Origin: Escherichia coli
GTDB taxonomy: Bacteria; Pseudomonadota; Gammaproteobacteria; Enterobacterales; Enterobacteriaceae
Length of the DNA: 1,550 nucleotides
Reading direction: 5' to 3' (one strand)
Assembly (NCBI RefSeq): GCF_003334355.1
Contig: NZ_QOWP01000086.1
In this document: in pieces, positions 1-1,550 of the stretch
How the letters are laid out: every line of letters begins with the position of its first letter
Numbering within the stretch: the first letter of the stretch is position 1
Notes under the pieces: model-generated
Database searches by the model: none
What the model was told of the DNA's origin: nothing
Seen by the model: only the letters and a program-made list of their open reading frames with translations
Position numbers and translations under genes: made by a program

Positions 1-1550
1 GATGGCCACGGGATTGGTGCGCCGACTGGGTAGCTTTCTGGTGGAAGATTTTTCGAGGTATAAACTTCTGCCCAGTCTTCCTCAAAACCATAGCCATCTC
101 TTGAGGAACGGTAGAACAGACCTCCATTTCTGTAATGTGCCTTCATCTGCAAGGTCCGGCAACTTCCGACTCCGGTATAGAAGTTAACCAGAATATAGGT
201 GTCGCCAGAGCGGGTGACATTGTAAGCGCCTGATTCGGCATTCCAGGGAACACCACCATCCGCATCGGCATATGTATCCGTTGCCCTTCTGGCAAAAGCA
301 GCCACATGCGCGGCGGTTAAAGTGATATCAGTAGAACCATCAAATGGAACACCGGATATTTTTCTTGCAGTCTGAAGTTTTGTAGCAGTTGCAGCATTAC
401 CAGTGGTGTTCTGATTACCCGTAGTGTTTACACCTGGAAGGTTAATATTTGCAGAACCGTCGAAAACAACTCCACCGATAGATCTTGCCGTCTGCAATTT
501 CGTGGCTGTACTTGCATTACCATTCAATGAACCAGTTAATCCACCTGTAACAGACAACGGACCTGAAACTGTTCCTCCGGTTGTTGGCAGTGCTCCAATA
601 TCTGATGGTGTAGGTTTCTGATGTGAGCTATACATCGTATAAACAACACCATAGGTAACGCTGGAAGGCTTACTCGCTGAATATGTTGGCGAGGTATAAA
701 CAGAAACTGACGCATTTGCAGTACAATCCCAATGGATATTTACACTCGTCGCATAATTGCCAATCTCAACGTAAATATCATATGTATCGCCGGATGTGTT
801 GATCCAGGCGAAATTCGTTAATCCGACGGCTGTACGCTTCCACAAAGCCCCGGTAATTCCTTTGGGGTTTCCATTGCCTGCTCGTAGAACCAGTTCTGAA
901 ATGCCTGCCTGATGTGGGGAACCGACGTTGTAACCAGCGCCACCAATCAATGCGATGTAAACGATGGAACTCGCTTGTGGCATGGTAACCGTAGCCAGTT
1001 TGAACCACCCAGCCCCGCCAGAGAAAGACATCGTTACTGAATTTAAAGTACCAATATCTTTCGGCGTTAATGTTATATCCGCAGTCAGTGCTTTTCCGTT
1101 AACTTTTCGGTTAGATGGCACCCTGCTATTCGCATTGTCATTGGCTGCTTTAACTGCTTTTGGCGTTGCGGCCAGCGATTCACTGGTGCTATCAACAGCA
1201 CTGCTAAGTTTCACAACACCTTTAGTTGTAAGGCTTGCGTCTTCCATCGCAACTGCACCGGCAATCTCTTCAGCACGATCAGCAGCAGCTTCCGCACGGG
1301 TCGCAGCGGATTCAGCAGTAGTTTTGCTCTGAGATGCTGCCGTCGCACTGCCTGCCGCCTCTGTTGCTTTCGTGGATGCCGTCGTGGCGCTGCCCCGCGC
1401 TGCTGACGCCTGTCTGGTCGCCTCATCTTTTGAAGCAGACGCCGATGATGCCGATGACGCCGCCGAACTGGCTGACGATGCGGCTGCCGTTTTTGAGGAT
1501 TCTGCACGGGTTTCCGACGCTTTCGCGTTCGTTTCGGATGTCTTCGCTGC
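1..1550 (-). CDS. Phage/prophage side tail fibre protein (lambdoid Stf-like), internal fragment; both ends lie outside the window
   Basis: Minus-strand frame with codons at + 1550..1548 down to + 5..3 is open for all 516 codons. This frame is absent from the ORF track, consistent with no in-window stop. Translation begins AAKTSETNAKASETRAESSKTAAASSASSAASSASSASASKDEATRQASAARGSATTASTKATEAAGSATAASQSKTTAESAATRAEAAADRAEEIAGAVAMEDASLTTKGVVKLSSAVDSTSESLAATPKAVKAANDNANSRVPSNRKVNGKALTADITLTPKDIG and ends ...SKNLPPESYPVGAPIPWP. The Ala/Ser-rich rod, the SESLAATPKAVKAA motif, the KLQTAR..FDGS..I.L repeats and the GAPIPWP motif are all characteristic of enterobacterial side tail fibre proteins as I recall them. 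Family assignment is from memory, not a search. Confidence 0.9.
3..23 (-). other. GAPIPWP junction motif at the window edge
   Basis: The last seven complete codons of the in-window translation read G A P I P W P (minus-strand GGC GCA CCA ATC CCG TGG CCA). As I recall it, this is the first part of the GAPIPWPSD motif shared by lambda Stf-type and other tail fibre proteins; the expected following residues lie beyond + position 1. Confidence 0.7.
318..398 (-). repeat. Tail-fibre repeat unit 2 (protein-level repeat NAATATKLQTARKISGVPFDGSTDITL)
   Basis: Residues 385-411 of the translation; same TATKLQTAR-x-I-x-GV-x-FDGS-x-x-I-x-L pattern as unit 1, 40 residues downstream of it. Confidence 0.8.
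438..518 (-). repeat. Tail-fibre repeat unit 1 (protein-level repeat NASTATKLQTARSIGGVVFDGSANINL)
   Basis: Residues 345-371 of the translation; matches unit 2 at 20 of 27 positions. Confidence 0.8.
531..1031 (-). other. Unassigned central domain of the fibre (about 165 aa), possibly a beta-rich module
   Basis: Residues 174-340: MSFSGGAGWFKLATVTMPQASSIVYIALIGGAGYNVGSPHQAGISELVLRAGNGNPKGITGALWKRTAVGLTNFAWINTSGDTYDIYVEIGNYATSVNIHWDCTANASVSVYTSPTYSASKPSSVTYGVVYTMYSSHQKPTPSDIGALPTTGGTVSGPLSVTGGLTGS. Composition is rich in G, T, S, V, Y and W with alternating hydrophobic residues; I cannot assign a named motif from sequence alone. Confidence 0.4.
1143..1172 (-). other. Conserved tail-fibre motif LAATPKAVKAA
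   Basis: Residues 126-136 of the translation (SESLAATPKAVKAAND). As I recall it, the (S/T)ETLAATPKAVK motif recurs in lambdoid and related enterobacterial tail fibre proteins. Confidence 0.7.
1248..1550 (-). other. Ala/Ser/Thr-rich low-complexity segment of the fibre (putative N-proximal shaft region)
   Basis: Residues 1-101 of the in-window translation are dominated by A, S, T with scattered K/E/R (e.g. KTAAASSASSAASSASSASAS, TRAEAAADRAEEIAGA). The DNA here is visibly more GC-rich than the rest of the window, about 65% in one hand-counted 60-nt block versus about 38-45% in blocks further 5' on the + strand. Confidence 0.75.
1440..1457 (-). repeat. Short tandem 9-nt repeat (2 units) encoding SSA-SSA within the Ala/Ser-rich segment
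   Basis: Minus-strand codons TCA TCG GCA / TCA TCG GCG; + strand reads cgccgatgatgccgatga at 1440..1457. Confidence 0.6.

Follow-up and report, generated by a model that had tools for sequence, protein, structure and literature searches.

What lies in the middle of a lambdoid side tail fibre, between its rod and its receptor-binding tip, when no motif there can be named? The question is raised by a stretch of Escherichia coli DNA of 1550 nucleotides (contig NZ_QOWP01000086.1), which we call the window and take as a whole. Its minus strand holds a single frame that is open over all 1550 bases and translates into 516 amino acids without a stop; the longest open reading frame on the plus strand has 122 amino acids. 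The open frame, together with 99.7% nucleotide identity to the NZ_CP072976 coding sequence for WP_210833249.1, identifies the product (positions 3-1550, minus strand) as an internal part of a Stf-like lambdoid prophage side tail fibre. A first reading made from the letters alone, here the sequence-only reading, had singled out bases 531-1031 as a central domain of about 165 residues, probably uncharacterised, that might serve as an accessory binding or spacer domain. These bases, on the minus strand, correspond exactly to residues 174-340. The segment is indeed rich in Gly, Thr, Ser, Val, Tyr and Trp (54% of its residues), and its single cysteine is residue 276, within HWDC at 273-276. This cysteine is not conserved, as most relatives have a tyrosine at that position. 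We find that the segment contains a compact domain that is widespread in phage fibres, and we put at roughly 0.6 the probability that residues ~181-305, a nine-strand β-sandwich, form an in-line trimeric knob with a mainly architectural role.

Searches of sequence families left the segment without a name. No Pfam match was found within it, even at E ≤ 10, by the single sequence or by alignments of 8 and 58 sequences, and NCBIfam gave no match for it either. PF03406 (Phage_fiber_2), PF07484 (Collar) and PF21446 (Gp34_trimer) have no hidden Markov model (HMM) match within residues 174-340, and the weak Pfam Collar matches that were seen belong to the flanks of other family members, outside the segment. 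Neither phmmer nor a profile search of all PDB sequences returned anything significant; judged by sequence, no PDB entry appears to contain the domain. The segment is matched by phrog_3299 (4e-109) and phrog_21552 (3e-106), both over segment positions 1-167, and by phrog_6722 (2e-74); all three are whole-protein tail fibre families without a domain description. The domain is not described in the Ur-lambda, Gifsy-1, Bas63, Sf14, RBPseg or Acinetobacter fibre literature, and a literature search found no published structure or function for the domain-bearing part of T2 gp37. Thus, the sequence-only reading was right that no recognised motif is present as far as Pfam, NCBIfam and PDB are concerned, and sequence and profile searches of these databases found no described fibre or tailspike domain covering the whole segment; it overlooked a junction-type linker at the segment end (residues 306-340, KPTPSDIGALPTTGGTVSGPLSV...). 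Similarly, the segment counts as uncharacterised in that it lacks a curated sequence family, but it already lies inside PHROG fibre families and AlphaFold DB models.

A first homologue search gave only short, close matches, and an exhaustive search of cluster representatives was needed for depth. A profile of eight close relatives, compared with 1.84 billion cluster representatives, matched 205 at E ≤ 1e-3, 149 at E ≤ 1e-10 and 87 at E ≤ 1e-30, usually over profile positions ~5-135. Every checked representative among the 205 is a tail-fibre protein, and four very distant members of 1500-2700 amino acids are all classed as tail-fibre proteins by PHROGs. From these representatives we built a 58-sequence family alignment that reaches down to 26% identity, with the window sequence as the founding member of the profile. 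AlphaFold2, run on this alignment, predicted a nine-strand β-sandwich with high confidence (predicted local distance difference test, pLDDT, 92.9; predicted template modelling score, pTM, 0.84), its strands lying between segment positions 8 and 132. When superposed on this prediction, independent models of relatives in AlphaFold DB reach template modelling (TM) scores of 0.8-0.96. Since the profile finds 205 relatives and the predicted fold is confident, the flagged segment holds a genuine compact domain and not a chance pattern. The globular part comprises residues ~181-305 as defined by the strands (bases 636-1010, minus strand) or 174-313 as defined by the profile. Segment positions 133-167 are modelled with less confidence and are largely unstructured. 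They correspond to a linker that leads back to the shaft (residues 306-340, bases 531-635, minus strand; MYSSHQKPTPSDIGALPTTGGTVSGPLSVTGGLTG), which is poorly conserved, has a pLDDT of 76-80 and contains almost no regular secondary structure apart from one short helix. A linker of the xD[VI]GA type follows 56 of 124 family copies. The proposal of a discrete internal fibre domain therefore stands, but its size was overestimated, as about 35 of the 167 residues are linker.

Conservation within the family is uneven. All of its motifs, GW.K.A.V.MPQ, GGxG[YF]NxG..Q, RxGNxxPKG and NTSGDxYDIY, occur in the window, and twelve positions are conserved in at least 90% of the 58 diverse members (Q19, G30, G31, G33, N35, Q41, R50, N53, P56, Y84, Y87 and P122 in segment numbering). 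The least variable stretches include the Gly/Asn/Pro-rich loops GGxG[YF]NxG..Q and RxGNxxPKG and the NTSGDxYDIY hairpin. Mean pairwise identity is 44-49% at segment positions 8-65 and 76-90, compared with 17% in the loop at 66-75 and 23% at 91-135. The same split is seen among close E. coli relatives, with 88-95% identity in the first part and 52-63% at positions 95-140. Because identity is high in the first part and low in the loop and in the last third, the domain consists of a fixed scaffold and a variable face.

The predicted two-sheet antiparallel β-sandwich can be superposed on WceF from Pantoea stewartii (PDB 6TGF), with 12% identity in the structural alignment; 6TGF is absent from the PDB profile searches at E ≤ 10. 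WceF is a tailspike-like homotrimer in which each chain forms a β-helix, a short triple β-helix and an eight-strand jelly-roll sandwich (residues 531-667), followed by a stem (PMC7949094). Its C-terminal regions intertwine, and salt bridges join the sandwiches (PMC7949094). From domain size and class, the match is probably to the 531-667 sandwich, since this is the sole all-β sandwich of that size in WceF, whilst a match to the β-helix is disfavoured because other β-helix tailspikes score lower. The two proteins differ in kind, as WceF is a secreted bacterial glycanase with a β-helix and not a fibre. The β-sandwiches of Acinetobacter and Klebsiella phage tailspikes (6C72 from Fri1 gp49, 5W5P, 8OQ0 and 7XY1) gave low scores with partial cover; we take these to be terminal domains, whereas the window domain is internal.

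The sequence-only reading had proposed that the distribution of the domain across phage fibres be checked, and we found it to be common to the fibres of many phages, T2 included. A tblastn search of 50,697 phage records with the 140-residue core matched 298 records, 191 of them with at least 80% query cover. Sorted by the first word of the organism name, the 298 comprise Escherichia (164), Salmonella (56), Shigella (22), Acinetobacter (19), Enterobacteria (15), Citrobacter (7) and others. The family HMM locates the domain at residues 821-966 of T2 gp37 (E 7e-49), 480-631 of Felix-O1-like wV8 gp83 (E 5e-57), 144-298 of Mu-like ST64B Sb24, 528-688 of the fibre of the phage-plasmid Cyrano, 74-234 of phi458 Orf47 and 531-691 of the full-length, 1075-residue host protein of the window. 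Fibres of Acinetobacter T4-like phages carry it as well. T2 gp37 and wV8 gp83 are true homologues of the domain (tblastn identity 40-47%), and there too it is internal, several hundred residues before the tip, although the remainder of both proteins is unrelated to the window protein in order and content. T4 gp37, with its needle and tip of the PDB 2XGF type, is without the domain; hmmsearch with the family profile found no match at E ≤ 10 in T4 gp34, gp35, gp36 or gp37. Lambda Stf and K-12 StfR, checked as possible carriers, lack it. Mu protein S (5YVQ, 8JU3) shares with the window protein the PF03406 repeat (window residues 98-149) and the distal domain (417-510) but has nothing that matches residues 174-340. 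Within E. coli, the 501-nucleotide segment is present in 585 of 5426 complete genomes, at 588 chromosomal and 118 plasmid places, and 565 of the 598 matching records are at least 95% identical at the nucleotide level. None of the 124 full-length copies sampled is terminal in its protein; the median length beyond the core is 238 residues, with a collar junction of the PxGxPxPW type directly after the domain in at least 26 copies and shaft repeats in others. Two fibre proteins contain two copies of the domain, P0061 (791 amino acids; 163-302 and 480-619) and P0062 (1422 amino acids; ~570-700 and 889-1027). Both P0061 copies have the same score, which points to either a recent tandem duplication or an artefact of assembly.

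Recombination at conserved motifs is the classical explanation for the mosaic fibres of T-even phages, P2, Mu and lambda, and the domain is part of such a mosaic. In blastn comparisons of K-12 stfR, mEp332 and PhiR30_1 with the window, only window positions 1-401 (92-95% identity) and 1132-1550 (82-83%) align. These three fibres have the same architecture, distal domain, collar and needle as the window protein, and their flanks share 82% (N side) and 95% (C side) protein identity with it. Between the shared flanks, they carry a non-homologous insert of 260-276 amino acids that has no HMM match to the window domain; BLASTP of one cassette against the other reaches only E 0.02. In K-12 stfR, this alternative cassette (DFADKRGMRYVRVNAPAG...) occupies the exact slot of the domain, at residues ~505-780 (L010:2562-3389), and it is also present in mEp332 (L009) and PhiR30_1 (L008). 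The phi458 and Cyrano fibres show the reverse arrangement: they share the N side and the centre with the window (95-98%) up to residues 404-410 and then continue into other distal ends. Homology breaks off at either end of the second NAATATKLQTAR repeat (residue 384 at its start, residues 404-410 at its end), and the N-side break lies near residue 139, in the C-terminal end of the PF03406 repeat (106-146). From these break points, the segment sits in a 730-nucleotide exchangeable cassette, bounded by conserved linker repeats. The cassette (window 402-1131, minus strand; residues ~140-383) comprises the β-sandwich domain, the linker and the first NASTATKLQTAR repeat, and the recombining unit is thus wider than the segment that had been flagged. 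Because conserved repeats border it, fibres that share their ends can hold either the knob or a different insert.

We propose the following arrangement. Past the coiled-coil rod and the PF03406 repeat, each of the three chains would depart from the shaft and fold its own sandwich, and the three sandwiches would pack round the fibre axis, by analogy with WceF. Through the KPTPSDIGALP...GG linker, the chains would then rejoin the shaft ahead of the distal modules for receptor binding, which are the Mu-S-like domain, the collar and the His-rich needle. Placed immediately past the hinge region, the knob would serve as a rigid bead or a registration node. The domain travels within the 730-nucleotide recombination cassette. 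An architectural role is probable because the domain is never terminal among the sampled proteins, because it is common to fibres of phages with unrelated receptors, because it is nearly invariant within E. coli and has conserved loops that suit an interface, and because the only structure strongly related to it is the in-line sandwich of a spike-like trimer. Judged from sequence conservation, the Gly/Asn/Pro loops fit a fixed scaffold or an interface better than a fast-evolving receptor site. Between the accessory binding and spacer roles that had been suggested at the outset, the evidence does not settle the choice but favours a structural knob in line with the fibre.

Several observations weigh against this arrangement. 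A pseudo-trimer AlphaFold2 run, with three copies joined by (GGS)10 linkers and a 12-sequence alignment, reached only pLDDT 57 and pTM 0.47. Because of this low confidence, the trimeric geometry rests on analogy. The WceF residues in the match were assigned by us rather than reported by the alignment. The final third of the domain (23% identity) and a single loop (17%), against 44-49% elsewhere, could mark a ligand-facing surface. In addition, the swap of unrelated cassettes in otherwise identical fibres might be expected of a specificity module and not of a neutral spacer.

These last points lead to the alternative that survives best, which we regard as possible but not probable: an accessory lectin-like receptor-binding domain, whose variable face would make weak, reversible contacts with lipopolysaccharide (LPS) or other surface sugars and so help the tip to find its receptor. 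Jelly-roll-type β-sandwiches are a class common among carbohydrate-binding modules, and the nearest structural neighbour lies within a glycan-degrading enzyme (PMC7949094). The variable C-terminal third and the loop at segment positions 66-75 are carried on a conserved scaffold, and the cassette is exchanged between fibres with the same tip. Lambda-like side tail fibres can bind LPS core sugars, and Gifsy-1 Stf binds Gal II, at a site that has not been mapped (PMC12312913). However, no sugar-binding motif was identified in the domain, which retains 35-50% identity across phages whose receptors are unrelated, as are their hosts, which range from E. coli to Acinetobacter. Its near invariance within E. 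coli and the lack of sampled proteins that end with it also speak for an architectural knob over a lectin. A specific version of the idea, that the knob is a conserved second binding site on the side of the fibre with a variable face recognizing LPS or envelope sugars, seems to us rather unlikely. If it were true, T2-like, Felix-O1-like, Mu-like and lambda-like fibres would have a second site in common, and a cassette swap would tune host range independently of the tip.

The conserved loops allow a different interpretation, in which they form a binding site and the domain is a docking platform for a second fibre, an adhesin or a tail fibre assembly chaperone. The Gly/Asn/Pro loops are the least variable part of the family, and attachment of fibre to fibre via globular nodes is known in other phages (PMC12143355, RBPseg class TC8). 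No conserved partner gene is evident, however, as the neighbours differ among lambdoid, T2-like, Felix-O1-like and Mu-like contexts, and the Tfa and gp38-type chaperones known so far work at the C-terminal tip and not mid-fibre (PMC12143355). We consider docking improbable. Finally, both the segment and the Mu gpS-like distal domain of the same protein (residues 417-510) can directly precede the PxGxPxPW collar junction and weakly match the same profile regions of phrog_4277, phrog_295 and phrog_381, but an internal duplication of the tip domain is very improbable and was rejected, since BLASTP between the two domains gave E=15, hhalign of the 58-sequence profile against the C-terminal region gave 3% probability with only linker aligned, and phmmer and profile searches do not tie the segment to 5yvq or 8ju3 (gpS ~323-415, a distal receptor-binding domain of the Mu gpS/P2 gpH type). 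An enzymatic role was set aside, the domain being a small sandwich with no match to a catalytic family.

The other parts of the window protein frame the knob on both sides. Their order is an Ala/Ser-rich rod, the PF03406 repeat, the segment at 174-340, two fibre repeats, the Mu-S-like domain and the collar junction YPVGAPIPWP. The PF03406 phage tail fibre repeat (residues 106-146, bases 1113-1235, minus strand; Pfam E 1.1e-18) lies in the conserved stretch that flanks the cassette N-terminally, and its region also matches Mu gpS residues 105-156 (PDB 5yvq, 8ju3). Direct reading of the sequence identifies two fibre repeat copies with the consensus NA(S/A)TATKLQTAR..G..FDGS..I.L, the first at residues 345-373 (bases 432-518, minus strand; NASTATKLQTARSIGGVVFDGSANINLPG) and the second, where the recombination break points fall, at residues 385-413 (bases 312-398, minus strand; NAATATKLQTARKISGVPFDGSTDITLT). 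The second globular domain (residues 417-510, bases 21-302, minus strand) is a homologue of the Mu tail fibre protein S distal domain (domain E 3e-20 in a phmmer comparison with residues 323-415 of PDB 8ju3), and the collar junction comes next. Beyond the collar, the full-length protein continues into a His-rich HxH needle region that resembles T4 gp37.

The window protein corresponds to residues ~357-872 of WP_210833249.1, a 1075-residue E. coli chromosomal protein annotated as 'prophage tail fiber N-terminal domain-containing protein'. Its gene sits in a decayed lambdoid prophage, preceded by a Lom-family pseudogene and followed by a tail fibre assembly gene, and upstream of the pseudogene are tail genes that include minor tail protein L. 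Related DNA occurs in lambdoid phages and in phage records of ~108 kb; one of the latter, Cyrano, has plasmid-partition and toxin-antitoxin genes. Some of the matching loci show further features. In phi458 (L001:7618-8315, 8823-9101), an IS1 element (insA/insB) and a gene for a Pin-type DNA invertase lie just downstream of the fibre genes, and a 'tail fiber' fragment in the opposite orientation is a hint that an invertible segment for the fibre tip has been disrupted. The side tail fibres of PhiR30_1 (L008:1433-4826) and mEp332 (L009:1434-4834) are annotated as two or three gapped coding sequences, a pattern that may reflect frameshifts, of the kind present in laboratory lambda, or breaks in the annotation. 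In E. coli EC2341, a gene annotated as 'TIR domain-containing anti-phage reverse transcriptase' (L003:11190-12794) is found downstream of the fibre operon, immediately preceded by the tail fibre assembly gene and a pin-like recombinase with a frameshift; the defence gene thereby occupies a cargo slot at the end of the decayed prophage.

β-sandwich beads in fibres and spikes are already familiar, the gene is already annotated as a fibre, and PHROGs and AlphaFold DB hold relatives of the domain. The unnamed domain marks a modest gap in annotation rather than biology of a new kind. Having well-defined limits, conserved motifs and a confidently predicted fold, it is a candidate for a new Pfam or InterPro entry, and its recognition identifies a module in the classical T2 gp37. 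Efforts to engineer host range, for phage therapy and for phage-derived delivery particles, mainly target tail fibres, most of whose mid-fibre modules lack annotation; the cassette, now that its recombination junctions are mapped, offers fibre engineers a natural swap point. If its variable face binds sugars, the knob would be a second specificity determinant of the fibres that carry it; if not, it would simply be a structural bead.

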